From Vulcanimicrobiota bacterium (GTDB lineage: Bacteria > Vulcanimicrobiota > Vulcanimicrobiia > Vulcanimicrobiales > Vulcanimicrobiaceae): a DNA stretch of 64,000 nt. Each line of letters opens with the position of its first letter. Positions within the stretch are counted from its first letter, which is position 1. A program made the translations under genes and the position numbers. The stretch spans positions 32,001 through 96,000 of the forward strand of contig CAWGBN010000006.1 of NCBI GenBank assembly GCA_963820825.1. The letters run 5' to 3'. Under the pieces are notes generated by a model that saw only the letters and a list, made by a program, of their open reading frames with translations, did no database searches and was not told the origin of the DNA. This document shows, piece by piece, positions 36,294-61,139 of this stretch.

Positions 36294-36357
36294 ACTTGGT
36301 TGGTTACGCGCCGCAGGCCGGAGGCCTGCGGGGATGGCCGCCAGAAGGACGGCCCGG

Positions 36358-37068
36358 ATGCTGGCGCTCTCGCACGTTATCCTGCACGTGGGGTTTTGCG
36401 GTGCCATCGCTCGGATGCCGGCCGAAACAACCGTGGCACTGCGCGTTCACCTCGCCGACCGTTCCGGTCGCACGCAAGTCGATAAGGTCTTTCGCGTCGA
36501 GCGCGGCGACGAATCCGAAGCGATCGTCGAGTTCGACAGCGCCTTCGGCACCTACCGGCTCGACCTCGTCGCGCCGCGGTACCGCTGCTCGGCGACCGAT
36601 TACCTGTTTCTCATTTCGGGGCACGATCGGAGCGTGACGGAGAAGCTCGCCGATGCGTCGGCTCCCGCGCTGCCCGCGCCGGTACTGCTCTCCGGCACGG
36701 CTCCGCAGTCCTTTCTCTACGTCCAGCCGACGTTCGTACTCTTCGATAAGAGTCAGACCGCCTGCGATAAACCCGTGCCCCAGCCGCTGACGACGAACGT
36801 CAGCGTTGAGAACGATCAGGACGGATACTACATCTCGCTCTATCCCGATCGGTCGGCTGCGCCCGGCTCGCAGCAGCTCGCGCTGCGGCTGCGAACGCCG
36901 ACGCGACAGTACCACTACGTGCGCGTTCCGATCTCGTTTCCAATGGCACCGACGGGTTGGCCGACGAGCGTTACGCTCGACGTGACCGAGGATATGATCG
37001 ACGGACTCGCGGGCGATCCGGTCAACACTCTGCTCTGCCCGAAGATGTGGCGCACCTCGGCCGGATAG
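36358..37068 (+). CDS. Hypothetical protein
   Basis: Only long, coding-like frame between korA and the groEL terminator; start uncertain. Confidence 0.6.
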
Positions 37069-37108
37069 CCCTTCGACTCCGCCGCCGCGCGGCTCGCTCA
37101 GGATGACA
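37069..37108 (-). repeat. REP-like element
   Basis: Minus strand reads TGTCATCCTGAGCGAGCCGCGCGGCGGCGGAGTCGAAGGG, the GTCATCCTGAG...TCGAAGG repeat type. Confidence 0.65.
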
Positions 37109-37146
37109 AAAAAAGGAAACAGGCGCACCTCAACGGTGCGCCTGTT
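37108..37146 (-). terminator. groEL intrinsic terminator
   Basis: AACAGGCGCACC-tcaac-GGTGCGCCTGTT stem, followed on the minus strand by TCCTTTTTTT. Confidence 0.8.
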
Positions 37147-37172
37147 AGTCTCGACAGTCCGCGTTCGGACTA

Positions 37173-38848
<1,676 letters not shown>

Positions 38849-45725: not shown

Positions 45726-46132
45726 CCGCCGTCCCCGACGACCTCTTCGGCCGAGACGGTCGACCGCCAGCAAATCTGCCAACGCTCGCCCTCGCGACGA
45801 AAGACGTACGTATCGAAGCCGCGCTCGCTGCCGCTGCGTCCACCGAACTCGTAGCGCATGCGCCACGGCATCGTCGCAACCGCAACGTCGCCGTAGGTAT
45901 CGACTTCGGGGTCGTCGATGCTCACCTCGAGAACCGTCGCGCTGCGGATGAAGTCGCCGTAGCTGGCCGCAACCGCCGCGCGCCCGCGCGCGACGCGCGC
46001 GAGACTCGGCGCTACGACGATCGCATCCTCGGTAAAATGCGGCGCGACGAGCTCGGCGATCGCTTCGGGTTCGACCTCTCGCCAAATCCGGTTGACTTCG
46101 GCCAGAACGCCGACGGGATCAAGCGACGGCAT
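45722..46132 (-). CDS. NTF2-like (DUF4440/SnoaL) protein
   Basis: HFTEDAIVV, RGRAAV, YGDVAV, DTYVFRREGERWQI. Confidence 0.8.
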   Translation of the reverse strand: MPSLDPVGVLAEVNRIWREVEPEAIAELVAPHFTEDAIVVAPSLARVARGRAAVAASYGDFIRSATVLEVSIDDPEVDTYGDVAVATMPWRMRYEFGGRSGSERGFDTYVFRREGERWQICWRSTVSAEEVVGDGG

Positions 46133-47072
46133 CGCGCAGGTCGGCACGAGCGCGCGCGTAGCCGACGATCCGGTCGATCAACGATTCGAACGAGATGCCG
46201 ACCGCCGCACAGGCATCGGGAACGAGGCTCACCGGCGTCAAGCCGGGGAGAGAGTTGATCTCCAGGAGATGCGGACGCTGATCGGACGTGACGATAAAGT
46301 CGCTTCGCGAGTAATCGCGCAGCCCCAGCAGACGATGCGCAGAGAGCGCGAGCATCTGCAGGCGTGCGGCGAGATCTTCGTCGATCGGCGCCGGGACGAC
46401 GTGCGTGCTGCCGCCGGGCTCGTACTTGGCATCGTAACTGTAGAAGCCGTCGCGATTGGCGACGATCTCGACGATCGGCAGCGCCTCTTCGCCGAGCACC
46501 GCACAGGTAAACTCCCGGCCCTCCAGATACTCCTCGGCGAGAATCTGCGAGTAATTTTTCGAGGCCTCGAGCATCGCACTCGTCCACTCTTCGTGCGTGC
46601 GAACGATCGCGACGCCGGCCGAGGAGCCCTCGAAGCGCGGCTTGACGACGAGCGGAAGGTCGAGCGAACCCGGCAGCAGCGGCAGGGTCCCGCCGCTCAG
46701 ATCGAAGAGATCCCAAACCGGCGTCGGCAGCCCCTCCGCCGCGAGCAGTTTCTTGGTGAGATGCTTGTCCATCGAGAGTGCCGCCGCTTCCAGCCCGCTG
46801 CCGGTATACGGAATCGAGAGATACTCGAGCAATGCTTGAACGTGGCCGTCCTCGCCGCCAGGTCCGTGCAGCGCGATGAAGACGATGTCGGGCTTGAGCT
46901 GACGAACGGCGTCGAGAAAGCGCTCGTCGTAATCGAGCGATTGCGCGTCATACCCAAGCGAGTTGAGCGCGCGCACGACTTCGGAGCCCGAACGGATCGA
47001 GATCTCTCGCTCCGCGCTACTGCCGCCCATCACGACGGCGACGCGCTCTTTGCTGCGGGTATTACGTTGCAT
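46119..47072 (-). CDS. ddl: D-alanine--D-alanine ligase
   Basis: MGGSSAEREIS, LHGPGGEDG, MDK, EGSS, YSYDAKY, EINSLPG. Confidence 0.96.
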   Translation of the reverse strand: MQRNTRSKERVAVVMGGSSAEREISIRSGSEVVRALNSLGYDAQSLDYDERFLDAVRQLKPDIVFIALHGPGGEDGHVQALLEYLSIPYTGSGLEAAALSMDKHLTKKLLAAEGLPTPVWDLFDLSGGTLPLLPGSLDLPLVVKPRFEGSSAGVAIVRTHEEWTSAMLEASKNYSQILAEEYLEGREFTCAVLGEEALPIVEIVANRDGFYSYDAKYEPGGSTHVVPAPIDEDLAARLQMLALSAHRLLGLRDYSRSDFIVTSDQRPHLLEINSLPGLTPVSLVPDACAAVGISFESLIDRIVGYARARADLRDAVA

Positions 47073-48018
47073 CGATGAAAACTCCAACCAAGTGCACTTC
47101 GAGCTGTAAATCGACGTTCGAGCGGTCGCGCACCGCCCGGCGTACGCGTGCGAGCAGCGTTGCGACGTCTCGTGCCGTCGCTCCGCCGAGGTTATTGATG
47201 AAGTTGGCGTGCAGCTTCGAAACTTCCGCTCCGCCTTCGCGCCATCCCTTGGCCCCCGCATCTTCGATCAACCGTGCCGCCGCCGCGCCGGGCGGGTTGC
47301 GAAAGCAGGAGCCTGCGTTGGGCAGCGCGATCGGCTGCGTCTTCTTGCGCCGGATGAGGCGCGTCTGCATCTCGCTGCGGACGTCGCGCGCGCTCGAGCC
47401 GGCGAAGTCGAGCACGACCCGCGAGACGACGACGTCGCGGTCGAGCGTCGAGTGGCGATAGAGGTACTGCACCCCGGCGGCGTGCGGCTCCGGCCGCCCC
47501 GGCGACTGCACCCACACCTCGCGAACGAACTCTCCGATCTCCCGATCGGTGCCGGCATTCATTCGCAACGATCCGCCGATCGTTCCGGGAATCCCGGCCA
47601 GCGAACCGATACCCTCGGCGCCGGCCGTCGCCGCCTTTGCCGTCACGAGTGCCATGTCGGCCGATCCGCCGGCCTCGACGACGACGCGCTCGCCCTCGTT
47701 ACGGACGTTCACCGCCGCAAAATCTCCGGCGAGCCGGATGACGACCCCGCGAACGCCGCCGTCGCCGACGAGCACGTTGCTCCCGGCGCCGACGATCCAC
47801 CACGGCATCCGCCGGCGCAGGCAGAAGCGCATCAGCCGCGCCAGCTCCGTCTCGTCCTGCACGGCTGCGAACGCGTCGGCCGGACCGCCGATCTTCCACG
47901 AAGTATACGGCGCGAGCGGTTCGTCGAAGCGAACCCGCGACCCAAAGATCTCCCGCAGCGATTCGCGATCCGCATCGTCGAGCAGCGAGCGCAGCGCTCG
48001 CGCGGTGGTGACGCTCAC
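47062..48018 (-). CDS. murB: UDP-N-acetylmuramate dehydrogenase
   Basis: TSWKIGGPA, GSNVLV, GIPGTIGG, MNAG, NAGSCFRNP, HANF. Confidence 0.95.
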   Translation of the reverse strand: MSVTTARALRSLLDDADRESLREIFGSRVRFDEPLAPYTSWKIGGPADAFAAVQDETELARLMRFCLRRRMPWWIVGAGSNVLVGDGGVRGVVIRLAGDFAAVNVRNEGERVVVEAGGSADMALVTAKAATAGAEGIGSLAGIPGTIGGSLRMNAGTDREIGEFVREVWVQSPGRPEPHAAGVQYLYRHSTLDRDVVVSRVVLDFAGSSARDVRSEMQTRLIRRKKTQPIALPNAGSCFRNPPGAAAARLIEDAGAKGWREGGAEVSKLHANFINNLGGATARDVATLLARVRRAVRDRSNVDLQLEVHLVGVFIDAT

Positions 48019-49406
48019 GCGCGCAGCGGCGTGACGCGCGCTTCGACCGGCGTGGAGAAGCGTTGCGCCAATCGCACCGCGACGTCGGTAATGTCGCCGG
48101 CACCGAGCATCAGCACCAGCGCGCCGGCGGGAGCCTCCTCATAGAGTCTTCGCTCGAGCTCGGCGACCGATTCGGCATACTCGACTCTCGCGCCGAGGGC
48201 CGCGAGCGACTCGCCGATCGAACGTTCGCTCACGCCCGGGATCGCGGGTTCCGACGCGGCGTAGACCGGCGCGAGATAGATGCTGTCGGCGCCGCGCAGC
48301 GCCGCGGCGAACTCCCGCGCCAAGAAAGCGGTTCGCGTATATCGGTGCGGCTGGAATGCGACGATCAGCTCGCCGGGATGGCAGCGGCGCGCAGCGGCGA
48401 TCGTGGCACTGACCGCGGTTGGATGGTGGGCGTAATCGTCGACGATGGTAACGCGCTCGTTCGCAAGCAGAATCTCGAAGCGGCGGCGCACGCCGCGAAA
48501 CTCGCGCAGGGCCGTCGCGATCGCGGAGAAGGGCACGCCGAGCTCGAGGCCGATCGCGATCGCGGCGAGAGCGTTCTGCGCGTTCATCGCGCCCGGCACG
48601 CGAAGCTCGATCCGTCCCAGCGTTCGATCGCCCGCGAGCAGATCGAACGCGGAGCCGAAACCGGCGAAGGTAAGATTGACGGCGCGCAGCGACGCGGATG
48701 GGTCGAGTCCAAAGGTGACGATTCGCGCGCGCAGATCGTGCGCGGTGAGCGAAGCGGAGAGCGAGTTGTCGGCGCCGATCACCGCGAGACCGCGCTCGGG
48801 GAGCTTCGCGAGAAACTCCGCGAAGGCGCGCGCCAGCGCCGGCAGCTCGTCGTCGCTGGCGAGGTGATCGTTCTCGAGATTCGTGACGACGGCCATCGCC
48901 GGTTCGAGCAGCGCAAAGGATCCATCCGATTCGTCGGCTTCGGTAACGAACCAGGGCGAGGTTCCGTCGTGGGCGTTGCTTCCAAGCGAGACATCGATGC
49001 CGCCGAGCACGAGACTCGCATCGATCCCGCCGTGACGCAAGACCGCGTGCGTCATCGCCGTCGTGGTCGTCTTACCGTGCGTTCCGCAGACGGCGATCCC
49101 GTTTCGCCCGGCGAGCAGACGTGCGAGCATCTCTCCGCGATGTAAGATCGGAGTGCCGAGTCGCGCCGCCGCCGCGCACTCGGGATTGCGGCGGTCGATC
49201 GCCGAGCTGACGACGACGGTGCTCGCGGCGCGCACGTTGCGCGCGTGGTGTCCGATCGTAATCCGGGCACCCTCGGCGCGCAACCGCTGCAGAAGCGGTG
49301 TCTCGCCGAGATCCGAGCCGGAGACGCTCTCACCGCGTGCCAGCAGAATGCGGGCGATCGCGCTCATCCCGATGCCGCCGATGCCGACGAAGTGGTAGCT
49401 CGTCAC
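48015..49406 (-). CDS. murC: UDP-N-acetylmuramate--L-alanine ligase
   Basis: HFVGIGGIGMS, GTHGKTTT, EADESDGS, DDYAHHP, FQPHRYTRT. Confidence 0.97.
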   Translation of the reverse strand: MTSYHFVGIGGIGMSAIARILLARGESVSGSDLGETPLLQRLRAEGARITIGHHARNVRAASTVVVSSAIDRRNPECAAAARLGTPILHRGEMLARLLAGRNGIAVCGTHGKTTTTAMTHAVLRHGGIDASLVLGGIDVSLGSNAHDGTSPWFVTEADESDGSFALLEPAMAVVTNLENDHLASDDELPALARAFAEFLAKLPERGLAVIGADNSLSASLTAHDLRARIVTFGLDPSASLRAVNLTFAGFGSAFDLLAGDRTLGRIELRVPGAMNAQNALAAIAIGLELGVPFSAIATALREFRGVRRRFEILLANERVTIVDDYAHHPTAVSATIAAARRCHPGELIVAFQPHRYTRTAFLAREFAAALRGADSIYLAPVYAASEPAIPGVSERSIGESLAALGARVEYAESVAELERRLYEEAPAGALVLMLGAGDITDVAVRLAQRFSTPVEARVTPLRA

Positions 49407-50497
49407 GCGTTCTCTCTTCGCGACGTCAAGAGATCGATCCGGGCAAGAATCGCGGTCAGCGGGTCGGCTCCCCCCAAACGCGCGGCCCCTTCCGCCAGCT
49501 CGCGCAGCCGGAGCGGTTCGACCGTCTGCGCCAACAGGGAGGGCAAGCCTCCGTCTTGCAACTGCGCGTCGGTGAGGACGACGGCCGCACTGCCCGCGGC
49601 AAATCGTGCCGCGTTTGCGTCTTGATGGCCCTCCGCCGCATGCGGATACGGAACGAGGATTGCGGGCTTTCCGAGCGCGGCCAACTCGCCGAGCGTCGAC
49701 GCTCCGGCGCGCGAGAGAACCAGGTCGGCAACCGCGTACGCGTCGGCCATGTCGTCGAGATAGGCGCGCGCGTTCGGCAGCTCCGAGGCGACGCGATCGA
49801 AATCGGTTCGCCCCGTCAACGCCAGGAGTTGCCAACCCGGCGGCAATCCGCGCTCGCGCGTCATTTGGATCAAGGCATCATTGATCGAGCGCGCGCCTTG
49901 ACTTCCGCCCATCGCAACGAGCGTACGCCGCGACGGATCGAGCCCGAGGCGCGCGATCGCATCCTCGCGCGGCGGCAGCGCGCGCAACGTCGATCGGATC
50001 GGGATTCCGGTCGCCCGGTACTTCCCATTCGACCGGCCGCCGGCCGCGTACGGCGGAATCCAGACTTCGTCGACGATCGGGGCGAGTAGTCGGTTCGTCA
50101 AACCCGGCGCCGCGTTGGGCTCGAGCAGGACGAGCGGCGCGCGCGAGAGCCCCATCGCGCGCCGGATGCGCGCGGCCAGCGCGACCGGAAAGCAGACGTA
50201 GCCGCCCGTCGCAATTACGAGATCGGGTCGTTGCGCCGCGAGAAGCCGCAGGCTCTGGAGCGTGCCTTTGATATTCGATGCGATCGTTCGAACGAGGTCA
50301 AAGGAGGGCGAACGCGGCAGCGAGCGGCTCGAAATCGCGTGGAGATCGTAGCCGGCCGTCGGAACGATCGTCGCTTCGAGGCGATCGGCGGTACCGATGA
50401 AGGCAATCTTCGCGCGCCGCTCGCGTAAGGCATCGGCGATCGCGATCGCCGGATAGAGGTGCCCGCCGGTTCCGCCCCCAGCAAAGACGACGGTCAC
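49403..50497 (-). CDS. murG: Undecaprenyl-PP-MurNAc-pentapeptide GlcNAc transferase
   Basis: GGGTGGHLYP, GGYV, GGSQGA, RAGAST, HQDANA. Confidence 0.96.
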   Translation of the reverse strand: MTVVFAGGGTGGHLYPAIAIADALRERRAKIAFIGTADRLEATIVPTAGYDLHAISSRSLPRSPSFDLVRTIASNIKGTLQSLRLLAAQRPDLVIATGGYVCFPVALAARIRRAMGLSRAPLVLLEPNAAPGLTNRLLAPIVDEVWIPPYAAGGRSNGKYRATGIPIRSTLRALPPREDAIARLGLDPSRRTLVAMGGSQGARSINDALIQMTRERGLPPGWQLLALTGRTDFDRVASELPNARAYLDDMADAYAVADLVLSRAGASTLGELAALGKPAILVPYPHAAEGHQDANAARFAAGSAAVVLTDAQLQDGGLPSLLAQTVEPLRLRELAEGAARLGGADPLTAILARIDLLTSRRENA

Positions 50498-51642
50498 GTA
50501 TAGGGCGTCCGGCGCGCGTGGCGCGCCGGAGAGTTTCGCCCGACGTTGGCGATGAGCGCGACCGCAATGCAGTTGACGACGAGCGAGCTGCCGCCGAACG
50601 AGATGAAGGGCAACGGCACGCCGGTCACCGGCCACGACGACGAAACGACGCCGATATTGATGAAGGCCTGAATGGTGATCATCGCCGCGCAGCCGATCGC
50701 GAGGAAGAAGCCGAAGCGATCGGGTGCCGCAAGCGCGATGCGGATCGAACGGTAGGCAAGCGTAACGAAGAGGACGATGACGGCCAGCGTCCCGATCAAT
50801 CCCAACTCTTCGCCGAGCACCGAGAAGATGAAGTCCGTATACTGCTCGGGCAGATAGAAGAACTTCGCGCGCGAGGCGCCGAGACCGACGCCGAAGAGCC
50901 CGCCGCTCCCCAAGGCGAGGAGCGATTGAACGATGTGGAAACCGGTATTGAGCGGATCCTTCCACGGATCGACGAAGGCAAAGACGCGCGCGCGCCGGTA
51001 GGGACTCGCCAGCACGCTGAGCGCGGCAAACGGAACCATCGCGACCACGATCGCGGCGAGATGGAGTAGACGCGCGCCGCCGGCGAAGAAGAGCGCGAGC
51101 GCGATGAAGAGCAGCAGGCTCGCCGTGCCCATATCGGGTTCTTTGAGCACCAAGACCGCCATGATCGCGACCGGAATGCAGAGCGGAACGAGTCCGCGCG
51201 CGAGCGAGGTGATGCGCTCGCCGCGCGTCGACAAGACGGCAGAGAGATAGATCACCAGTGCGAGCTTCGCGAACTCCGAGGGTTCGATGCTCAATCCCGC
51301 CGCGCCGATCCAGCGGCGTCCGCCGTTGACGCCGAAACCGACGTGCGGAACGAAGACGAGCATGAGGCCGAAAATGGCCGCGACGAGCAGGTACGGCGCG
51401 ATCGAGCGCAATCGGTGATAGTCGATTCGATAACAAACGTAGGCGGCGCCCAGGCCGACGGCCAGCCAAATCAATTGACGCTTGAGATAGTACGCGATGT
51501 CGCCATGCTCGGCATACGCCGTCGCGCTCGACGCCGAGAAGACCATAACCAAACCGATCGCAATCAGCGCCGCGACGGCCGTGAAGAGCACGGTGTCGAG
51601 CGGCGCGCGCGCCGATGCGCGCAACGTCGCCGCGCTATGCAC
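50494..51642 (-). CDS. ftsW: SEDS peptidoglycan polymerase FtsW
   Basis: MVFSAS, RRWI, PSEFAK, EPDMGT, YLPEQYTDFIF, GEELG, PFISFGGSS. Confidence 0.95.
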   Translation of the reverse strand: MHSAATLRASARAPLDTVLFTAVAALIAIGLVMVFSASSATAYAEHGDIAYYLKRQLIWLAVGLGAAYVCYRIDYHRLRSIAPYLLVAAIFGLMLVFVPHVGFGVNGGRRWIGAAGLSIEPSEFAKLALVIYLSAVLSTRGERITSLARGLVPLCIPVAIMAVLVLKEPDMGTASLLLFIALALFFAGGARLLHLAAIVVAMVPFAALSVLASPYRRARVFAFVDPWKDPLNTGFHIVQSLLALGSGGLFGVGLGASRAKFFYLPEQYTDFIFSVLGEELGLIGTLAVIVLFVTLAYRSIRIALAAPDRFGFFLAIGCAAMITIQAFINIGVVSSSWPVTGVPLPFISFGGSSLVVNCIAVALIANVGRNSPARHARRTPYT

Positions 51643-53035
51643 CGGCCGTCTCCCGCAGCGCGTTGACGGCTGCAACGAACTGCTCGCCGCGGTCTTCGGC
51701 CGATTCGAACATGTCAAACGAGGCGCAGCCCGGTGAGAGTAAGACCACGCCGCCGGCACCCGCAAACTCCCGAGCGCGTCCGACCGCCTCTTCCATCGAT
51801 CCCGCGTGGGCGACGGCGACGCCGGAGGCGGCACGAGTGATCTCTTGCGCGGCTTCGCCGATCGTCACGAGCGCCCGCGCGCGCTCGCGGATCGCCGCGC
51901 CCATCGCTTCGAAGGTGGTGCCCTTCGCGCGTCCGCCGGCGATGAGGACGACCGGCACCTCGTAGGTATAGAGCGCCGCGACGACCGCCGCCGGATTCGT
52001 CGCCTTGGAATCGTCGACGTAGCGGATGCCGTCGATCTCGGCGACGGTCTTGAGACGGTGCGGCATCGGCTCGAAGCTCTTGATCGACTCACGCAGCGTT
52101 TCGACCGCGCACCCCGTCGCCAGCGCGGCGAGCAGCGCCGCCATTGCGTTGCGCACGTTGTGCTCGCCGGGAAGCGGGATCTCTTCGCGGGCAACGATCG
52201 GAATCGGCCGCGGATCGCCCGCGACCGGCGCATACATCACCAGCCCGTCGCGCAGGTACATCGTCGCGCGATCGGGGCGCTCGAGCGAGAACCAGAGCTG
52301 GCGCGCCTGCGCGCGCGCGTTGCCGTCGCGCCAATCCAGCACCGCAACGCGCGGATCGTCGAGATTGCCGACGAACCAGTCGGTCATCGATTGATTCGCG
52401 CAGATGCGATACTTCGCTTCGGCGTACTCCTCCATCGAATGGTAGCGGTCGAGATGGTCGGGCTCGATGTCGAGCAAGACCGCGACGCGCGGCTTAAACG
52501 CACGAATCGTCTCGAGCTGAAAGGAAGAGACCTCGGCAACGACCCACTCGTCGGCCGCCGCGCCGCGCACTTCCTTGATGAGCGGGTTGCCGATGTTTCC
52601 GCCGACCCGCACCCGCCGGCCGCAGCCGCGCAGCAAGTGTCCGATCAGCGCGGTGGTCGTCGACTTACCCTTCGTTCCGGTGACCGCCACGATCGGCGCC
52701 CCGCAGAGCCGGTAGGCGAGCTCGATCTCGCCGAGCACCGGAACGTCGGCTTCGTGCATGCGGCGCACGACCGGCGAGGTCGGCGGAACGCCGGGCGATA
52801 GCACCGCGCAGCCGAGATCGCGGGCGATCGCGCCAATCGACGCGGGCTCGACGAACTGCGCGCCGTGAGCCCGTGCGAAGGCGATGGGGTCGACGAGTTC
52901 CGCGACGGCCTTCTCGTCGGTCGCGTAGAGCGTCACGTTCTGCTCGCTCAAGATCTCGATACTCGCTAAACCGCTGCGTCCGAGGCCGATGATCAGGATC
53001 TTCTCGCCGGCATCAAATTGAAAAGGTTCGCTCAT
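51635..53035 (-). CDS. murD: UDP-MurNAc-L-Ala--D-glutamate ligase
   Basis: GLGRSG, SPGVP, TGTKGKSTT, GGNIG, EVSSFQL, DHLDR, DDSKATN, LLSPGCASFD. Confidence 0.97.
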   Translation of the reverse strand: MSEPFQFDAGEKILIIGLGRSGLASIEILSEQNVTLYATDEKAVAELVDPIAFARAHGAQFVEPASIGAIARDLGCAVLSPGVPPTSPVVRRMHEADVPVLGEIELAYRLCGAPIVAVTGTKGKSTTTALIGHLLRGCGRRVRVGGNIGNPLIKEVRGAAADEWVVAEVSSFQLETIRAFKPRVAVLLDIEPDHLDRYHSMEEYAEAKYRICANQSMTDWFVGNLDDPRVAVLDWRDGNARAQARQLWFSLERPDRATMYLRDGLVMYAPVAGDPRPIPIVAREEIPLPGEHNVRNAMAALLAALATGCAVETLRESIKSFEPMPHRLKTVAEIDGIRYVDDSKATNPAAVVAALYTYEVPVVLIAGGRAKGTTFEAMGAAIRERARALVTIGEAAQEITRAASGVAVAHAGSMEEAVGRAREFAGAGGVVLLSPGCASFDMFESAEDRGEQFVAAVNALRETAGA

Positions 53036-54003
53036 CGCACGATGGCCCATCCTAACAGCGAAGCGAGCACCGACGCAAGCCAAAAGCGCGAGGTCACCTT
53101 CGTCTCGGGCCATCCGCTGAGTTCGAAGTGATGATGCAGCGGGCTCATTCGCAGTATTCGCCGTCCGCCCGTCGCCTTGAAGTACCCGACTTGCAGGATG
53201 ACCGAGAGCGCTTCGGCGACGAAGACCGCGCCGATTACGACGAGCAGCAGCATCTCTCCGGTGAGTATCGCCGATCCGGCGAGTAAGGCTCCGAGCGCGA
53301 GCGAACCGGTATCGCCCATGAAGATGCGTGCCGGATGCAGGTTGAAGAGCAGAAAGCCGGCGCAGGCACCGATGCCCGCGGCGGCGGCAACGGCCACGCC
53401 CGGCACCGAGGCGCTCGTCGCGACGAGCGCGAGCACGACGAGCGGCGGAATCATCGTCCCGGCCGCGAGTCCGTCGAGACCGTCGGTGAGATTCACCGCA
53501 TGGGTCGTTGCGGTAATGGCGAGAATCCCGAGCAGCAGCCAGAGCCAGTGCGGCGCCACCAGCGCAAAGCTGCCGGCGTGGAAGAGGACGTCGGGCGGGA
53601 AGAGGCTCGGTGAGGCGGCCGCCACCCGCAAGAAGAACGCCGCGGCGAGCGCGGTCGCCAAGAACTTCGTGCGCGCGCGCAGGCCGCGATTCGCGCCGTT
53701 GCGGATCGCGAGCATATCGTCGACCGCGCCGATTCCGGCGCAGAGCGCGACGAGCAAGACGAGTTCGGGTAGTAAAGGAAGACGCACGCTCGCAAGCGCC
53801 ACGAGCAGCACCACGACGAAGACGATGCCGCCCATTGTCGGCGTTCCCGTCTTGGTTTGATGGGTTTCGGGAGCGTCTTCGTAGGCGCGCTGGCGCACCT
53901 CGAGGCGGCCGAGGATCGCGAGCAGCGCCGCGGTCGTGAGTGCGGCGACGAGAAAGCCGGCGAGAACCCAGAGACCGAGCGTCGCCCACGACGGATTGCT
54001 CAC
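53032..54003 (-). CDS. mraY: Phospho-MurNAc-pentapeptide transferase
   Basis: KTGTPTMGG, VDD, NLTDGLDGL, FMGDTGS, MSPLHHHFE. Confidence 0.96.
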   Translation of the reverse strand: MSNPSWATLGLWVLAGFLVAALTTAALLAILGRLEVRQRAYEDAPETHQTKTGTPTMGGIVFVVVLLVALASVRLPLLPELVLLVALCAGIGAVDDMLAIRNGANRGLRARTKFLATALAAAFFLRVAAASPSLFPPDVLFHAGSFALVAPHWLWLLLGILAITATTHAVNLTDGLDGLAAGTMIPPLVVLALVATSASVPGVAVAAAAGIGACAGFLLFNLHPARIFMGDTGSLALGALLAGSAILTGEMLLLVVIGAVFVAEALSVILQVGYFKATGGRRILRMSPLHHHFELSGWPETKVTSRFWLASVLASLLGWAIVR

Positions 54004-54713
54004 GACGGCGCCTCGAGCAGCGGATTCGGCCCGCTGGCGCGCCATTTCAGCACCACGATCGGCGTCTGCTCGTCGCTGTTGCCGTGGGGATTGTCGAGCA
54101 GCGTCGCTTCCACGCTTGTCGCGCGGACGCCGGTCGAACACCCCAGCACCTTCGCTCGTCCGAGATCGTTCACATCGACCACCGCGCAAGCGATGCCGGT
54201 CTGCTCTTGGACGAGGCGTGCGAAGCCGGCGGCGTCGCGCGGCGCGAAGACGATCGCACGCTCGTACGGCGGCATCGTCCCGGTGTAACCGTCGAAGGCC
54301 GCAATTGCTTCGCCCATTACCTCGTAGAAGGCGCCGCGCCGGCCGACGATCCGGCCGGCAAGCTGCAGCAGCGTCGCGTAGACGACCTTCCACGTTCCGA
54401 CCCGATCGATGACGAGCTGGACCGACTCCGGCTGACTGATCGTCGCCATCGGATCGGCGCGCCGCGAGAGTGCGAAGGCCAGGCGCGACGGGCGAACGTA
54501 CTCGGCGGCGAGCAGCTCGCCTTGCGCGATCGCAACGGCGGTCTCCGAAACGGTGATGACGTCACCCGGTCGCGCGATGCCGCGCACCGCGCGCGCGATC
54601 GATGCGACGAGATCGTCGCCGGGGCAAACGAGCGGCGTTCGGATGGGGATCGCGGTCAGCCCGGCCGGCACCTCCGGGCGGGTTACGAGCAGACCGCGCG
54701 TTGCAAGGCTCAC
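54000..54713 (-). CDS. CofE / F420-0:gamma-glutamyl ligase family protein
   Basis: IPIRTPLV.PGDD, DVITVSETAVAIAQG, DGYTGT, VVDVNDLG, DNPHGNSDEQTPIVV; 4-nt overlaps with both murF and mraY. Confidence 0.8.
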   Translation of the reverse strand: MSLATRGLLVTRPEVPAGLTAIPIRTPLVCPGDDLVASIARAVRGIARPGDVITVSETAVAIAQGELLAAEYVRPSRLAFALSRRADPMATISQPESVQLVIDRVGTWKVVYATLLQLAGRIVGRRGAFYEVMGEAIAAFDGYTGTMPPYERAIVFAPRDAAGFARLVQEQTGIACAVVDVNDLGRAKVLGCSTGVRATSVEATLLDNPHGNSDEQTPIVVLKWRASGPNPLLEAPS

Positions 54714-56086
54714 GTGCGCAACTCTTCGACGATCTCTTCCAATTTGTATCTGCGCGAGCCCTTCAAGAGGACGACGTCGTCGGGTCGAACGTGCTCGCGC
54801 AGCCATCGTGCCGCTTCGGAGTTCGTAGCGATCTGAACGATCTGGCGGTCGGTGAGACCGCCGCGCTGCGCGCCCCGCCGCAGATCGGCGGCATAATCTC
54901 CGCTCACCAGAAGCACGTCGACGCGCGCCGCCGCGTGAGCGCCGACGCGCTCGTGCAGCGCGCGCGACTCCTCGCCGAGCTCGGCCATCGAGGCGAGCAC
55001 CGCAATATGGCGCGCCGCCGTCTCGCCGGCAAAGGCGTCGAGTGCGGCAATCATCCCGTTGGCGTTGGCATTGTACGCATCGTAGATTAGTTGAATACCG
55101 TGCAGCGCGAGACGATCGTAGCGCCCTTGCGGTAGGCGCAGATCCGGGATCAGCGCGATGAGCGGTTCGAGCGGCACCTCGAGCTCGATCGCGCCCGCAA
55201 TCGCGGCCGCGAGATTCGCGCGGTTGTGCACTCCCGGCACCCGCACGTCCAACGCGAGCTCGACGCGCTCGCTGCCGGTACGATGGAGGAGACGCCGGTT
55301 GCCGAGCACGGTATACGCCGATCCCGCCAATGCGTGCTCTTCGATCGGCTCTTCCTCAACGGAGAACCAGTGCGGCGCACGAGCGAGCGTCACGGCGCGA
55401 CGGCGCGACGCTTCGTCGCCCGCGTTGAGCACCGCGCGCGCTCCGCGCGCAAAGAGTCCCCACTTCGTCTCCTCGAGACGCTCGCGCGAACGCATGATCT
55501 CCACGTGCGCGTCGCCGACGTTGGTGAGGATGCCGGCTTCGGGGCGAGCGATCTCGACGAGCGCCGCGACGTCGCCGTAATGGCGGGCGCCCATCTCGAC
55601 GACGAGCACGTCGTGGGCCTCGTTCGACGCGCGTAACAAGAGTTTGCTGACGCCGATCTCGTTGTTCTCGTTCTCGGGCGTGGCCAGGATACGCTCGCCG
55701 AACTTTGCCGCGAGCAACTGCGCGAGGAACGCTTTGGTCGTCGTCTTGCCGGTGCTGCCGGTAACGGCGATGACTCGGCCGCGAAAGCACCCGCGCGCCG
55801 CTCCCGCAAGCGCCATGTAGGCCGCCGTCGTATCGCGCACGAGCATCGTCGCGATACCCGGCACGCGCGCTTCGGGCCGGTCGACGACGAGCATCGAGGC
55901 GCCTCGCCGCACCGCCTCCGCAGCGTAATCGTGACCGTCGAACCGCTCGCCGCGCAACGCGACGAAGGTCTCGCCGGGTCGAATCGTCCGCGTATCGGTG
56001 TTCGCGCGAAGCGTCGCCGGTGCGGTTTGCCCGTCCACGAGCTTCGCCGAGGTTGCCGCGATTGCCGAATCGAGCGGAACGTTCAT
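54710..56086 (-). CDS. murF: UDP-MurNAc-tripeptide--D-Ala-D-Ala ligase
   Basis: FVALRGERFDGH, TGSTGKTTTK, NNEIG, EMGA, DAYNAN, LKGSR. Confidence 0.96.
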   Translation of the reverse strand: MNVPLDSAIAATSAKLVDGQTAPATLRANTDTRTIRPGETFVALRGERFDGHDYAAEAVRRGASMLVVDRPEARVPGIATMLVRDTTAAYMALAGAARGCFRGRVIAVTGSTGKTTTKAFLAQLLAAKFGERILATPENENNEIGVSKLLLRASNEAHDVLVVEMGARHYGDVAALVEIARPEAGILTNVGDAHVEIMRSRERLEETKWGLFARGARAVLNAGDEASRRRAVTLARAPHWFSVEEEPIEEHALAGSAYTVLGNRRLLHRTGSERVELALDVRVPGVHNRANLAAAIAGAIELEVPLEPLIALIPDLRLPQGRYDRLALHGIQLIYDAYNANANGMIAALDAFAGETAARHIAVLASMAELGEESRALHERVGAHAAARVDVLLVSGDYAADLRRGAQRGGLTDRQIVQIATNSEAARWLREHVRPDDVVLLKGSRRYKLEEIVEELRT

Positions 56087-57552
56087 CGCAGCGCCCCGCG
56101 CGCGGCGAGTGCTTCGCGCACGACCGCGCCGTCGTCGAACGGCAAGACGCGATCGCCGACGATTTGATAGGTTTCGTGCCCCTTCCCGGCGACGAGCACC
56201 ACGTCACCGGAACGGGCTTCGGCGATCGCTCGTTCGATCGCACGCCGGCGGTCGAGCTCCACGACATAATCTCGCCTGCCGATTCCGGCGGCGATCGCAT
56301 CGACGATTGCTTGCGGCGCTTCGGAACGCGGATTGTCGCTGGTGAGGTAGATGCGATCGGCGAGCCGCGCCGCGACCGCGCCCATCTCCGGGCGCTTTCC
56401 CCGATCGCGATCTCCGCCGCAGCCGAAGACGACGGCGATCCTGCCGTTCGCCGTCTCGCGCAGCGACTGCAGCGCCGATTCGAGCGCGTCGGGCGTGTGC
56501 GCGTAATCGACGACGACCGCGACGTCGCCGCCGGCGTGCCGCTCCATCCGGCCCGGAACGCGCGCGATCTGCGCGAGCGCCTGCGCGCTCGTGCCGTCGT
56601 CGATCCCGAAGCAGCGCGCGACGCCGATTGCGGCCAACGCGTTCCAAACGTTGAAACGCCCCGCCAGCGGAAGCTCGTACCGCCGTCCGTCGACGACGAA
56701 GCGGCTCGACCCCGCTTCGACGACGATCTCTTTCGGAACGAGGCTCGCATCGCGCTCCATACCGTAGGTGATCACCTCGCGTCCGTCGCGGCGCAGCTCC
56801 CCGGCCCATCGGCGGCCGTGCGGATCGTCGGCGTTGAGCACGCAGCGTTTCGCGAGCTCGAAGAGCCGCCGCTTTGCCGCAGCGTACGCTTCTACCGTTT
56901 CGTGAAAGTCGAGGTGGTCGCGCGCGACGTTGGTCAGGGCCGCCGCGAAGAAGCGCACGTCGTCGATTCGGTCGAGCGCAAGCGCGTGGGAGCTCACCTC
57001 CATCGCGACGGCGGCGGCGCCGGCGTCGCGCATCTCCGCGAGCAATCGGTGGAGTTCGGGCGGGAGCGGCGTCGTGTTCTCGAGATGCCATGTTTGCTCG
57101 GCGAACTCCGCGCCGACCGTCCCGACGACTCCGCACGGCGTTCCCGCAGCGCCCAGAATCGCGGCGATCATGTGCGTCACCGTCGTCTTGCCGTTCGTAC
57201 CGGTGACGCCGACCACCGCGAGATCGTGCGACGGATCGCCGTAAAATGCCGCCGCCAGCGCCGAGAGCGCGCGCCGCGCGTCGCGTACGCGCACGGCCGC
57301 AACCTCGGCCGGAAGGCTTACGTTCGCATCCGCCTCCAGGACCACGGCGCGAGCGCCTCGCGCGATTGCGTCGTCAACGTAGCGACGGCCGTCGGTATGG
57401 CTCCCGCGCAGCGCGACGAAGAGCGCGCCGGGTTCGACCTCGCGCGAGTCGATCGCAATCTGGGTAATCGTAAGGTCGCGCTCGCCGGAGATCTCCGTCC
57501 ACGCGACCCGGCTCAGCAGCGTCGCAAGCGCGACGCTGCGATCACCGCCCAC
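56083..57552 (-). CDS. murE: UDP-MurNAc-L-Ala-D-Glu--meso-DAP ligase
   Basis: GTNGKTT, MEVSSH, DHLDFH, DYAHTPD, GCGGDRD, DNPR (DAP-specificity motif), GKGHE. Confidence 0.97.
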   Translation of the reverse strand: MGGDRSVALATLLSRVAWTEISGERDLTITQIAIDSREVEPGALFVALRGSHTDGRRYVDDAIARGARAVVLEADANVSLPAEVAAVRVRDARRALSALAAAFYGDPSHDLAVVGVTGTNGKTTVTHMIAAILGAAGTPCGVVGTVGAEFAEQTWHLENTTPLPPELHRLLAEMRDAGAAAVAMEVSSHALALDRIDDVRFFAAALTNVARDHLDFHETVEAYAAAKRRLFELAKRCVLNADDPHGRRWAGELRRDGREVITYGMERDASLVPKEIVVEAGSSRFVVDGRRYELPLAGRFNVWNALAAIGVARCFGIDDGTSAQALAQIARVPGRMERHAGGDVAVVVDYAHTPDALESALQSLRETANGRIAVVFGCGGDRDRGKRPEMGAVAARLADRIYLTSDNPRSEAPQAIVDAIAAGIGRRDYVVELDRRRAIERAIAEARSGDVVLVAGKGHETYQIVGDRVLPFDDGAVVREALAARGALR

Positions 57553-59281
57553 GCCGTGCGACGGAAGCGCTCGGCAAGACTCCGGCGTGCAGCATGGCAT
57601 CGCGGGCGATCTCGGCAAATGCGGGTGCGGCGACGATGCTTCCGTAGTATGCGCCGATCGGCCGTTCCACTTTCACGTAAATGACGTAACGGGCATGCGG
57701 GTAGGGGACCATTCCGATGAACGACGCCGCGTAGTATCCCGCGCGATACTCACCGTCGACCACCATCTGCGCCGTACCGGTCTTTCCCGCCGTCGCATAG
57801 CCTGCAATCCGTGCGCTCGGGTCTCCGGTACCGTGAAGGACGACCGTGCGGAGGAACGAGCGCAGCTCCGCGGCAGTGCGCTGCGAGAATACGCGCCGCA
57901 CTACCTCCGGCGAGTAGCGCCGCACGAGCGCGCCATGCGGATCGTAAACGCCGTGCACGATGCGCGGCTGCATCAGCAGCCCGCCGTTGGCGATTGCGGC
58001 GTAGTAGCGCGTCATCGCCAGCGGCGTGACCGAGACGCCTTGACCGAAGGACATCGTCGCGAGTGACGAGCCGCTCCACTGCGACGGCGGCGGCACGATT
58101 CCCGGATTCTCGCCGGAAAGGCCGACGCCGGTTGGCGTTCCGAATCCCGCCTTGCGCTCCATCGCATAGAGTGTCTTGCCGCCGATCGCAAGACCGACCT
58201 CGGCCGCACCGACGTTGTGCGAAAGCGCGATGATCTGCTCGAGCGTCTCGCTGCCCCCGGCTCCCATGAGACCGTCTTCCGCATTGTGAATCGTCTGACC
58301 GCCTACTTCGATCTCGTTGCGCGCGGGAAAGCGGCTCGCGAGGGTGACTTTGTGCGATTCGAGGGCGGCGGCCGCAGTGATGAGCTTATACGTGGAGCCG
58401 GGTTCGTAGGCATCCATCACCGCGCGATCGCGCCGCTGCGCGTCGTTGAATTTCCAGAAGCGGTTCGGATCGAAATCCGGCATGTTGGCCATCGCGAGGA
58501 TCTCGCCGGTCCACGGATCCATCACGATCGCGGTTCCGTCGAGCGCGTGATACGCGTTCACCTGCTTCGCGAGCGCCCGCTCGGCAACGAACTGAAGGTA
58601 CGGATCGATCGTTAGCTCGACGTCCAATCCAGGCTGCGCCGGCATGATGACGCGCTCTCGGCCGAAGGGTATCGGGCGCCCGAACTCATCGGCTTCGAGC
58701 GTGACTCGTCCCGACTGACCGCGCAGCACGTCATCGTAGGCATATTCGATTCCGTCGAGGCCGTTTTCATCGGTACCGACAAAGCCGATGACGGTCGAGC
58801 CGAGGCGCCCGGCGGTGTCGACGCGTAATCCCGTCTGCTCTTCTTTGAGGTCGATGCCGATCAGGCCGAGACTGCGGACGCGCGCCGCTTCGTCGTGCGG
58901 CACCTTTCGCGCGATCCACGCGAACCAGAGATGCCGGTCGTGCAGCGCGGCGATCGTCGCCGCGTCGAGCCTGCCGAAGATCCGTTCGAGCTTCGTAACC
59001 GTCGCATCGGGATCGACGATCTCGCGCGGCACCGCGTAGACGCTCTCCGACGGGAGCGAACGGACGAGCACGTTTCCGCTGCGATCGAGAATGCCGCCGC
59101 GGCGTGCAAAGACCTCGACGGTATCGGAACGCTGGGCGAGCGCCTCTCTCGCATAGAGCGAACCTTTGAGCGCTTGGACGTCGTAGAGCCGCCACGCGAG
59201 AAAGAGCGCGACGATGAGACATGCATAGAACGAGAGCCGGGCGCGCATCGGAGCGACGCGCGCAAAGGTTCGCTGATGCAT
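57542..59281 (-). CDS. ftsI: Class B penicillin-binding protein (FtsI/PBP3)
   Basis: RGGILDR, EPGSTYK (SxxK), SHN (SxN), GKTGTAQ (KTG). Confidence 0.93.
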   Translation of the reverse strand: MHQRTFARVAPMRARLSFYACLIVALFLAWRLYDVQALKGSLYAREALAQRSDTVEVFARRGGILDRSGNVLVRSLPSESVYAVPREIVDPDATVTKLERIFGRLDAATIAALHDRHLWFAWIARKVPHDEAARVRSLGLIGIDLKEEQTGLRVDTAGRLGSTVIGFVGTDENGLDGIEYAYDDVLRGQSGRVTLEADEFGRPIPFGRERVIMPAQPGLDVELTIDPYLQFVAERALAKQVNAYHALDGTAIVMDPWTGEILAMANMPDFDPNRFWKFNDAQRRDRAVMDAYEPGSTYKLITAAAALESHKVTLASRFPARNEIEVGGQTIHNAEDGLMGAGGSETLEQIIALSHNVGAAEVGLAIGGKTLYAMERKAGFGTPTGVGLSGENPGIVPPPSQWSGSSLATMSFGQGVSVTPLAMTRYYAAIANGGLLMQPRIVHGVYDPHGALVRRYSPEVVRRVFSQRTAAELRSFLRTVVLHGTGDPSARIAGYATAGKTGTAQMVVDGEYRAGYYAASFIGMVPYPHARYVIYVKVERPIGAYYGSIVAAPAFAEIARDAMLHAGVLPSASVARRGR

Positions 59282-59311: not shown

Positions 59312-59761
59312 TCACTGCGAGCGCGTCACCGCCGGAGCGAAGAATCCGGCCAGCGTCGAGAAGAGTGCAAAACGCGACCGCACGCGAGCGACCCGCGGCG
59401 GCTCGATTCTCACGACCGCAAGGGTCTGCGGTTCGCGCATGCCCAATCGCGCGGCAATCGCCGCGAGCCGGTCGTCGGAACGAAGCGCGGCGATGCGATC
59501 GTCGAGCCGCATCGTCTCTTCCTGCAACGCTTCGCGGTCGGCTCGCGCCGTGGCCACCGCATAGCTCAACCCGGTGAGGCTGGACGTCAGCAGGACGTAG
59601 CTCATCAGCAAGAAGAGCAAGCAGCTCAGGGCGATGAAGACCCGGCCGACGCCCGTATAGCGCGCTCGCGATTTGCGCACCATCCGCCGCTGCGTCGCGG
59701 CCCGCACGGTTCGCGGGTTGCGAATCCGCGACGCGCGCTCGATGAGACGCGGTGCGACCAT
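59312..59761 (-). CDS. Cell division protein FtsL-like
   Basis: Basic N-terminus, one TM helix, coiled coil, ARLGM; lies between rsmH and ftsI. Confidence 0.75.
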   Translation of the reverse strand: MVAPRLIERASRIRNPRTVRAATQRRMVRKSRARYTGVGRVFIALSCLLFLLMSYVLLTSSLTGLSYAVATARADREALQEETMRLDDRIAALRSDDRLAAIAARLGMREPQTLAVVRIEPPRVARVRSRFALFSTLAGFFAPAVTRSQ

Positions 59762-60634
59762 CAGCTTGCCTTTCGTTGCGCGGCGCGCAGCTTCGCGCTG
59801 CGCGCGCGCCGATTCTCGGCGATCTCCTCGCGGCCTGGGAGAACCGGGCGCTTCGTCAGCACGTCGAGACGCTCGTCGTTGCGGAAGCTCTGCTTGACGA
59901 TTCGGTCTTCGAGCGAATGGAAGCTGATCGCGACGACGCGTCCGGCGCCGCGCAGACGGCCGACGGCTCCGTGCAAACCTTCGCGCAACGCTTCGAGCTC
60001 GTCGTTCACCGCGATGCGCAACGCCTGAAAGACTCGCGTCGCCGGATGAACTCGCTCGCGCCGGCCGCGGCGCTGCACCACGCCCGGCAACGAGCTGGGC
60101 GAACTCCGCGGTCGTACTCGGCAGATTGGCATTCGTCCGGCGGGCGACGATCGCGCGCGCGATGCGCCGCGCGGAGCGCTCTTCGCCATAGTAAAAGAAG
60201 ATATCCGCGAGCTCGCCTTCGCTCGCCGTCGAGAGTATATCGTAGGCGCTGCGTCCCGCGCCGGGATCCATCCGCATGTCGAGCGCAGCCGGTTTTCCGA
60301 GCGAGAAGCCGCGCTCGGGATCGTCAAGTTGCATCGACGAGACTCCCAAATCGAAGAGGACGCCGTCGATCGAGTCGATTGCGAATCGATCGAGGACGTG
60401 AGTGATTTCCCGAAAGTTTGCCTGAGCGAAGACCAACCGCGAGTCGGAGATCGCAGCGGCGCGAGCCGCCGCGTGCGGATCGGCATCGATTGCGATCACG
60501 CGACCACCCTCGAGCCGCTCCAGCATCGAGCGCGTATGTCCGCCCGCCCCGAACGTGGCGTCGACGTAGATCCCGTCGGGGCGTATCGCCAGATACTCCA
60601 TGGCAGCCTCGAGCAGCACCGGAACGTGGCTCAC
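59761..60634 (-). CDS. rsmH: 16S rRNA m4C1402 methyltransferase, frameshift near 60084
   Basis: [32 protein letters not shown], then [29 protein letters not shown] in another frame. Confidence 0.95.
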
Positions 60635-60646
60635 GCCGCCGCCACA

Positions 60647-61087
60647 TCACAGACCAAACTCGGCCATGAAGCTGGGGATCTCGCCCTCGGGGGGCGCCTG
60701 GAAGTCGTACCGCTCCTTCGCCCAAATCTCGATCCGCGTGAGCAGTCCGACCGAGACGACCTGCCGTTCGATGCCCGCATAGGAACGCAGCCGCGCGGGA
60801 ACGACCACCCGTCCCTGCGCGTCGCAACCGACCTCTTCGCTATGCGCGAAGAGATAGCGGATATGGCGGCGGTAGCGCTCGTCCTTGGTGGGAACCGCCT
60901 CGAGCCGGCCGCAGAACTCGACCCACGTGGCGGTCGGGTAGAGCGCCAGGCAGGCATCGGGAGGGGCGATCGTTAGGACAAACTGGGGCCCGAGTCGCTC
61001 GCGGAAGCGCGCCGGCACGATAAGCCGCCCCTTGTGGTCAAGGGCGTGCTGCTCCGAACCGGCAAAGCGCGGCAGTTCCGCGTGCAC
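60647..61087 (-). CDS. mraZ: Transcriptional regulator MraZ
   Basis: LDHKGRLIVPARFR, DAQGRVVVP, IEIW; GGAGGA RBS. Confidence 0.95.
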   Translation of the reverse strand: MHAELPRFAGSEQHALDHKGRLIVPARFRERLGPQFVLTIAPPDACLALYPTATWVEFCGRLEAVPTKDERYRRHIRYLFAHSEEVGCDAQGRVVVPARLRSYAGIERQVVSVGLLTRIEIWAKERYDFQAPPEGEIPSFMAEFGL

Positions 61088-61103
61088 AAAGTCCTCCGGA
61101 AGG

Positions 61104-61139
61104 CACCACTAAGCACTACTTCCCACCACTATACGCCCC
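61104..61139 (-). promoter_or_regulatory. MraZ-binding direct repeats
   Basis: Minus-strand GGGGCG / GTGGTG / GTAGTG / GTGGTG at a 10-bp period just upstream of mraZ. Confidence 0.75.

Follow-up and report, generated by a model that had tools for sequence, protein, structure and literature searches.

The subject of this work is a window of 64,000 nucleotides from a Vulcanimicrobiota bacterium (GenBank assembly GCA_963820825.1, contig CAWGBN010000006.1, positions 32,001 to 96,000 of the forward strand) and, within it, a gene for a CofE-like protein (CofEL) that lies between murF and mraY. By Pfam assignments, the window holds a complete division and cell wall (dcw) cluster on its minus strand, and CofEL sits inside it. 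We found that the CofEL gene is genuine and conserved and that public records annotate it wrongly; it is probably a new functional variant of a known fold. It is very probably a cell-wall-associated enzyme. The gene and its immediate surroundings are as follows.

54000..54713, minus strand: CofEL, 237 aa by translation of the open reading frame (ORF), GTG start at 54713-54711 and TGA stop at 54002-54000
54710..54713, minus strand: overlap of murF and CofEL, GTGA, 4 nt, read from the sequence
54000..54003, minus strand: overlap of the CofEL stop and the candidate GTG start of mraY, GTGA, 4 nt, read from the sequence
54710..56086, minus strand: murF, with Mur_ligase, Mur_ligase_M, and Mur_ligase_C domains, TGA stop at 54712-54710
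53032..54003, minus strand: mraY, with Glycos_transf_4 and MraY_sig1

Each end of the CofEL gene shows tcac on the plus strand, which corresponds to GTGA on the minus strand. The first-pass annotation of the window had claimed a 4-nt overlap with each neighbor. For murF, the overlap was confirmed (GTGA at 54710-54713). For mraY, the GTGA is present, and the GTG at 54003 is a plausible start of the gene rather than a proven one: 42 nt upstream, near 54045, lies an in-frame ATG (placed by hand; it encodes the M of MARQRAES) that would give a 46-nt overlap. CofEL also has an alternative start, an in-frame ATG further upstream at 54806 that would yield 268 aa. The GTG start is nevertheless supported, because the database copy of the protein (100% identical) is 237 aa long and the best 120 relatives measure 227-252 aa. 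The matches to MurF and CofEL meet at one shared coordinate in relatives, and in close relatives the MraY match starts 9-15 nt past the end of the CofE-like match. CofEL is translationally coupled to murF in the class Eremiobacteria, to which the window belongs. A chance ORF was rejected as an explanation, since 198 of the 201 sampled genomes of the phylum carry a homologue. The 201-genome tallies include two genomes flagged as unpublished (G178 and G128), and no claim depends on those alone.

The rest of the dcw cluster consists of the following genes.

56083..57618, minus strand: murE, with Mur ligase domains
57542..59281, minus strand: ftsI-type class B penicillin-binding protein (PBP), with Transpeptidase and PBP_dimer
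51635..53050 (start approximate), minus strand: murD, with MurD-like_N, Mur_ligase_M, and Mur_ligase_C
50494..51600 (start approximate), minus strand: ftsW, with FTSW_RODA_SPOVE
49403..50500 (start approximate), minus strand: murG, with the N- and C-terminal domains of Glyco_transf_28
48015..49400 (start approximate), minus strand: murC, with the N, M, and C domains of Mur ligases
47062..48018, minus strand: murB, with MurB_C and FAD_binding_4
46119..47261, minus strand: ddl, with Dala_Dala_lig_N and Dala_Dala_lig_C
60647-61108, minus strand: mraZ, by Pfam
59312-60634, minus strand: rsmH, with a Methyltransf_5 Pfam match and an apparent frameshift

The order murE-murF-CofEL-mraY-murD is fixed in the window's class. 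It was seen at 116 of 118 loci, and the other two are cut by contig ends. The core murF-CofEL-mraY arrangement was retrieved at 29 of 30 loci in a first search (the exception is cut at the contig start), at all eight further loci from families f1-f3 of the class, and at 79 of 80 loci in a scan of named-species genomes (the exception is cut at the contig end). In the other classes of the phylum, CofEL takes a membrane-anchored form of about 400-440 aa. The model of this form (pLDDT 88.4) predicts an N-terminal membrane helix, an Ig-like beta-sandwich, a linker, and the CofE-like domain. The sandwich is of a generic Ig-like kind (gamma-adaptin ear, ApaG, and similar; E ~1e-4), no Pfam family was found for the N-terminal domain, and it gave no functional lead. 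The transporter observed beside the membrane-anchored form is of the energy-coupling factor (ECF) type, with a fused S/T component and a double ATP-binding cassette (ABC) ATPase (L039 2304-6741; also L037, L042, and L048-L051).

At the protein level, CofEL matched PF01996 with 46.7 bits (cut-off 25), its residues 24-105 covering profile positions 2-81 of 218, and Pfam found no other domain. The CofE equivalogs TIGR01916 and NF009809 gave 30.4 bits, over residues 21-105 only, where the cut-offs are 180.65 and 274. In the PDB, sequence and profile searches matched the CofE of A. fulgidus (AfCofE) over the same N-terminal stretch only. This is the 'PGDD...GD...AxGR' region of CofE, which is homologous in CofEL. 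An AlphaFold2 model built from 33 homologues (pLDDT 82.7, pTM 0.80) extends the likeness. With this model, Foldseek against the PDB returned A. fulgidus CofE as the sole match (E 1e-10 to 3e-9, TM 0.55-0.58), and VIA-align against 2phn_A gave Z 14.6 and an rmsd of 3.1 Å over 181 residues (model 18-235, chain 2-226), the next-best of the 48,161 chains compared reaching Z 4.4. A profile-profile comparison with ten true CofE sequences of the same phylum reached 97.3% probability. Judging from the model, CofEL is a CofE-fold protein over its full length and a distant paralogue of CofE, so the CofE-family membership first proposed for it holds at the level of the fold. The fold of CofE and of the FbiB N-terminal domain (PF01996, TIGR01916; PDB 2PHN, 2G9I, 7ULD) extends across nearly the whole protein, and CofEL is a stand-alone representative of a sister branch of this fold that is large and uncharacterised.

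Across 127 cluster representatives of this branch, D51, D141, D180, N182, D183, N208, G127, T217, P218, Q64, and R66 are 91-100% conserved. The window protein carries the branch residues T26, D51, Q64, G127, F129, Y130, D141, D180, N182, D183, N208, P209, G211, T217, and P218, and its exception among the conserved set is R66. By alignment and by eye, D141, D180/N182/D183, and N208/N212 line up with the CofE motifs NAGVD, SD(S/T)xGR, and MGE, so acidic and polar residues are retained at these positions. The same motifs reportedly hold the Mn ligands of AfCofE, D109, D150, T151, and E208, and this numbering fits the alignment. In contrast to CofE, CofEL shows a near-invariant basic glycine-rich motif, G(K/R)xxG(R/K)(R/K)GxFY, in a helical segment (model helices 95-138). 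This GRRGxFY motif sits where the alignment to CofE is poor, and the region of AfCofE F92 falls there. In AfCofE, F92 stacks on the F420 ring, and R234 in the C-terminal hairpin makes the other F420 contact (PMC10861534). CofEL ends 14 residues past the last conserved strand, whereas AfCofE continues for about 30 more, R234 included. The structure comparison with 2phn_A likewise ends at residue 226 of that chain, and the tail with this F420-stacking residue is missing or shortened.

Public records call relatives of CofEL 'coenzyme F420-0:L-glutamate ligase', and the protein does pass the PF01996 cut-off. Still, the probability that it is a true F420-0:gamma-glutamyl ligase is negligible. The score lies far under both equivalog cut-offs, the tail is short, and the window genome (9 contigs, 85.4% complete), in which CofEL is the single PF01996 gene, has no match to CofC (PF01983) or CofD (PF01933). 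True CofE, defined as scoring above the TIGR01916 cut-off, was present in 39 of the 201 genomes, all in families f6 and f18-f21 of other classes, and in none of the 113, 3, and 15 genomes of families f1-f3, that is, in 0 of 131 genomes of the window's class. The genomes with true CofE also carry CofEL, which indicates two families with two jobs. On the grounds of the equivalog scores, the lack of cofC and cofD matches, and the lack of true CofE in the 131 class genomes, this identity was rejected, and CofEL is unrelated to cofactor F420.

The first-pass annotation had reported no F420 biosynthesis genes within the window, which proved correct, and had pointed to a genome-wide check for cofC, cofD, and fbiC. 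That check, in the 85.4% complete genome, was also empty for cofC and cofD, and the cofG- and cofH-like matches stayed under their cut-offs (TIGR03550, 63 bits vs. 213; TIGR03551, 308 bits vs. 374). The genes behind these matches, of the radical S-adenosylmethionine type, are on another contig (G000:C8:52351-55247), and one of them has an internal TGA. They are probably menaquinone (futalosine) genes. The genomic context of CofE is cofC and cofD, whereas that of CofEL is made of cell-wall genes. The label 'coenzyme F420-0:L-glutamate ligase' on CofEL proteins is therefore an unsafe basis for inferring F420 metabolism, and databases carry this F420-enzyme label for a family of hundreds of clusters.

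We searched the family profile against 1.84 billion cluster representatives and retrieved 1335 clusters at E<=1e-3, of which 241 reach E<=1e-30. A near-complete CofEL domain was present in 126 of the best 150 clusters. Among these 126, 42 consist of the domain by itself, 32 carry a membrane helix and an extension at the N-terminus, 41 another N-terminal extension, 4 a C-terminal extension, and 7 fall outside these classes. A Pfam scan of 28 longer representatives showed the following partners.

Amidase_3, an N-acetylmuramic acid (MurNAc)-L-Ala amidase, fused to CofEL: 6 of 28
AsnB-type glutamine amidotransferase fused to CofEL: 4 of 28
TPR repeats with CofEL: 5 of 28
MurF fused to CofEL: 1 of 28
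CofEL, membrane helix, and polysaccharide deacetylase: 1 of 28
CofEL fused to an M20 peptidase: 1 of 28
CofEL fused to adenylate kinase: 1 of 28
CofEL fused to a GNAT domain: 1 of 28
partner domain not recognised by Pfam: the remaining 8 of 28

The Amidase_3 fusion is real and recurrent, and one of its clusters comprises 25 members, whose contigs reach 454 kb. The MurF fusion is known from one protein on one 2.9-kb contig, and its support is weak.

Outside the phylum, a first neighborhood scan was seeded with the amidase fusions and covered 79 loci, using tblastn with annotated neighbors. Amidase_3 was fused or directly upstream at 62 of them, a count that is partly by construction given the seeding, and divergently upstream at 5. 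An Orn/Lys/Arg decarboxylase gene (OKR_DC_1) adjoins CofEL in 25 Bacillota loci of the 79, downstream in 21 (Pelotomaculum and kin) and upstream in 4 (Thermaerobacter and others), and a PBP5-type DD-carboxypeptidase follows in 7. The 12 loci without the amidase comprise one dcw cluster, five with CofEL before murB, two mreB-mreC-CofEL-mreD arrangements in Cloacimonadota, two with murJ, and two that are too short. At the murB loci, rapZ and the CofD-family gene yvcK lie further along, in a Clostridia block. A second scan was seeded with stand-alone forms and covered 80 loci of at least 571 relatives, on a narrower alignment because the family as a whole is too diverse; here, too, CofEL preceded murB at five loci. 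In Actinomycetota, one locus has a transglycosylase, a MurT-like ligase, and CofEL in a row, and other single loci show the AsnB-CofEL fusion, a murJ neighbor, or a class-III aminotransferase neighbor.

Altogether, wall enzymes are neighbors or fusion partners of the family in Bacillota, Actinomycetota, Cloacimonadota, Planctomycetota, and other groups. The tie to the wall recurs across several phyla and arrangements, and it is not universal. The cell-wall link first suggested by the dcw location has thus been strengthened, both by the fusions (Amidase_3, AsnB, MurF, deacetylase) and by the neighbors murB, murJ, mreC/mreD, and the MurT-like ligase.

As a separate observation, Pelotomaculum carries a second Amidase_3/CofEL copy (L215 4133-11369) among sporulation-type genes, with a CtpB-like S41 protease, a YhcN/YlaJ spore lipoprotein, and a PBP5-type DD-carboxypeptidase as neighbors. 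This context hints at a role in spore cortex synthesis.

At the functional level, the first-pass annotation had proposed that CofEL joins an amine or amino acid to a carboxylate of the peptidoglycan stem peptide. We infer the chemistry, the nucleotide use, the substrate, and the site, and an amide ligase remains the best reading. We give an even chance to CofEL being an amide ligase of the cytoplasm that depends on metal and nucleotide and modifies a carboxylate of a muramyl-peptide precursor. Like CofE, it would use a nucleotide triphosphate and a divalent metal to convert a free carboxylate into an acyl phosphate, to which an amine (ammonia, an amino acid, or a diamine) would then be joined. 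The carboxylate would belong to the UDP-MurNAc-pentapeptide leaving MurF, or to the lipid I or lipid II made by MraY and MurG. For CofE, the activation of a carboxylate by GTP and its joining to the amine of glutamate are described in the sections consulted of PMC8498797 and PMC10861534, and those of the former present a proposed mechanism modelled on MurD and FPGS. The Mur ligases (MurC-F, Mpl) share the operon with CofEL, but their fold is unrelated.

A cytoplasmic location would agree with several features of the family. AsnB, MurF, and adenylate kinase among the fusion partners are cytoplasmic enzymes, the sequences of the amidase fusions show no hydrophobic signal segment, and the deacetylase fusion has its two enzyme domains on either side of a membrane helix. 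Where CofEL is membrane-anchored, the helix begins near residue 2 and is preceded by 0.4 K/R on average, versus 2.8 in the 15 residues that follow, and K/R are more numerous after than before the helix in 29 of the 32 forms. By the positive-inside rule, this skew suggests that the CofE-like domain is cytoplasmic and tethered to the membrane, as would fit an enzyme that meets lipid- or UDP-linked precursors.

Regarding the site, the precursor offers as free carboxylates the D-Glu alpha-carboxyl, the carboxyl of meso-diaminopimelate (mDAP), and the terminal D-Ala. The AsnB family amidates mDAP, and its fusion to CofEL suggests another carboxylate as the target of CofEL. For MurT/GatD, the group amidated is the D-Glu alpha-carboxyl of lipid II. 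MurT_C was found in one of the 201 phylum genomes, had no match in the window genome, and was found in one of five CofEL-bearing genomes of other phyla (Pelotomaculum propionicicum). In a sample of 251 Actinomycetota genomes, which includes three flagged as unpublished (G379, G325, and G293), 19 had CofEL, 106 had MurT, and 2 had both (odds ratio 0.145; Fisher p 0.003, a value that exaggerates the association because related genomes are not independent). This largely complementary distribution favors the D-Glu alpha-carboxyl, on thin evidence, and the alpha-carboxyl of D-iso-glutamate would be our best guess. Tentatively, and with a low probability, the CofEL family may derivatise this group as a widespread analogue of MurT/GatD with a different fold, adding ammonia, an amino acid, or a diamine according to lineage. 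The proposed likeness would lie in a nucleotide-dependent acyl-phosphate ligase working on a stem-peptide carboxylate at the cytoplasmic face. In contrast, MurT has the Mur-ligase fold and no homology to CofEL, which matches PF01996 only, and no glutaminase partner adjoins CofEL in the window.

Several findings weigh against a wall ligase of this kind. Most diderm bacteria do without MurT, so its near-absence from the phylum shows little, and the coexistence of MurT and CofEL in P. propionicicum, together with their adjacency in one actinomycete, indicates that CofEL is not simply a MurT substitute. In the protein, the CofE segment THKVVSKAEGR has become SETAVAIAQG(R/E), and the lysines K39 and K43, invariant in the true CofE set, are lost: they align with T58 and I62 of the window protein, and across CofEL the two positions are T/S/K and I. 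Nucleotide binding may therefore be altered or absent. Moreover, R66, which aligns with R47, an invariant Arg of true CofE, is Glu in the window protein (codon 54516-54518). Of 131 Eremiobacterota loci, 104 have Glu at this position, 6 have Gln, and 21 have Arg, and the residue is Arg in 116 of 127 family clusters, with Glu only in relatives at least 67% identical. These losses, and the new G(K/R)xxG(R/K)(R/K)GxFY motif in a helical segment that aligns poorly to CofE, would suit a protein that serves wall synthesis as a nucleotide- or precursor-binding regulator, a scaffold, or a hydrolase. YvcK, a CofD-fold protein of Bacillus with a cell-envelope role, offers a precedent for the reuse of an F420-pathway fold in the wall physiology of organisms that lack F420, and CofEL itself occurs in the Clostridia block with murB, rapZ, and yvcK. 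However, YvcK differs from CofEL in fold and protein, and no CofD-family gene was found in the window genome. The Asp/Asn cluster at the CofE metal-site positions is near-invariant in the 127 clusters, as expected for catalysis, and the fusion partners make or break amide bonds; we consider a non-ligase role rather unlikely. The remaining points against the wall ligase concern genomic context. CofEL overlaps the end of rpoD at 45 of the 80 stand-alone-seeded loci (Actinomycetota, mostly Microbacterium), where an ATP-grasp gene is present in 41 of the 45, most also have an alanine-racemase-like gene, and four have murJ. At 30 of the 80, the query set used recognised no wall gene. Within the phylum, the conservation of the dcw location, which the first-pass annotation had made a test of its idea, stood in the class Eremiobacteria (116 of 118 loci) and failed in the other classes, where none of 12 loci had dcw genes within 6 kb of CofEL and 7 of the 12 had an ECF/ABC transporter near its membrane-anchored form. 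The rpoD linkage, the loci with no recognised wall gene, the transporter neighbors, and the location outside the dcw cluster in the other classes would agree with a housekeeping ligase for another small molecule (for example, one adding a glutamyl tail) that came to lie in the dcw cluster by an accident of lineage. This is improbable in our judgment, as a lineage accident would hardly produce at least five independent wall-gene arrangements spread over different phyla along with four or more kinds of wall-enzyme fusion.

Two further alternatives keep the ligase chemistry and change the substrate. The first-pass annotation had given cadaverine on the D-Glu alpha-carboxyl as an example, in the manner of Selenomonas, and a Selenomonas/Veillonella-type ligase would attach cadaverine, putrescine, or agmatine at the very precursor site proposed for CofEL. 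In favor of it, the decarboxylase adjoins Amidase_3-CofEL in 25 of 79 loci, in two arrangements. GNATs acetylate amines, and one CofEL cluster is fused to a GNAT domain; a class-III aminotransferase adjoins CofEL in one actinomycete, and the charge reversal from R66 to Glu in the window clade would, speculatively, suit a cationic substrate. For Negativicutes, the consulted sections of PMC10628300 and PMC12826042 describe polyamines on D-Glu that are read by the SLH domain of OmpM and leave the enzyme of this modification unnamed. On the other hand, the SLH receptor domain (PF00395) was not found in the 85% complete window genome, whose sole OKR_DC_1 gene is unlinked to CofEL and lies beside MgtC and a SpoIIIAA-like ATPase, an uninformative context. 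Because most of the decarboxylase neighbors belong to a single related group (Pelotomaculum and its kin), they are not independent. Furthermore, the family is common in Microbacterium and Oscillospiraceae, for which we know of no report of a polyamine-bearing wall. Cadaverine thus retains weak support at best, from the decarboxylase neighbors and the GNAT fusion, and a polyamine ligase is doubtful. In the other alternative, CofEL would act on the lactyl carboxylate of MurNAc, re-attaching a peptide or amino acid to UDP-MurNAc in a salvage or editing step akin to Mpl or MurC. The first substrate carboxylate of CofE belongs to the phospholactyl group of F420-0 (PMC10861534), and MurNAc, like F420-0, ends in a lactyl carboxylate. 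This carboxylate is the one freed by the commonest partner, Amidase_3 (6 clusters and 62 of the 79 fusion-seeded loci), in forms that lack a hydrophobic signal segment, and the M20 peptidase fusion would also fit. Nonetheless, the analogy is purely chemical, the window has a normal murC, and such a step would have no obvious use for the AsnB fusions, nor for the contexts with murJ and mreCD, which leaves it a slim chance. The amide ligase acting on a stem-peptide carboxylate is therefore the reading we retain.

A side observation touches lysine metabolism. PF02784, the family that includes the diaminopimelate decarboxylase LysA, has no match in the window genome and matches in 13 of 14 control genomes. 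The absence could be due to gaps in the genome, which is 85% complete, or to a different lysine route.

The synthesis of peptidoglycan precursors is well mapped, and yet CofEL is locked between murF and mraY across a class of abundant soil bacteria. Our literature search, within the library it covered, returned no link of the CofEL family to the cell wall and no named gene for a polyamine-peptidoglycan ligase. If the ligase reading is right, it would provide genes for substituents on the D-Glu alpha-carboxyl whose chemistry has been known for decades, together with a new type of wall ligase. The more tentative proposal of derivatised D-iso-glutamate, if true, would explain orphan activities such as the group-B diamino-acid bridge in Microbacteriaceae and the polyamine walls, and would mean that Eremiobacteria modify their stem peptide. 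The one cultivated species of the phylum is Vulcanimicrobium alpinus; the consulted sections of its description report a thin layer of peptidoglycan beneath an outer membrane, with no wall chemistry given (PMC9758169). Cultured carriers of CofEL exist in Microbacterium, Pelotomaculum, and Thermaerobacter, so the question is open to bench work.

In Microbacteriaceae, rpoD and CofEL are followed by an ATPgrasp_ST ligase on the opposite strand and, mostly, by alanine-racemase-like genes (L243, L266, L272, and 38 other loci); at L266, the C- and N-terminal domains of the racemase are on separate ORFs. This block is possibly a gene set for the group-B cross-bridge.

Finally, two essential genes of the window appear broken. 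The long ORF of rsmH matches positions 3-187 of 309 of the Methyltransf_5 profile only, and the C-terminal half of RsmH is in a different frame (ORF 59761-60486). By eye, the tail of the long ORF resembles FtsL, with a membrane helix and a coiled coil. The break in rsmH is either an assembly indel or a genuine frameshift. The groEL gene (36304-38833, minus strand) is also split, with Cpn60 positions 1-199 in ORF 38159-38833 and 250-490 in ORF 36304-38115. This is the second essential gene with an apparent indel, which points to errors in the sequencing or assembly of the genome.

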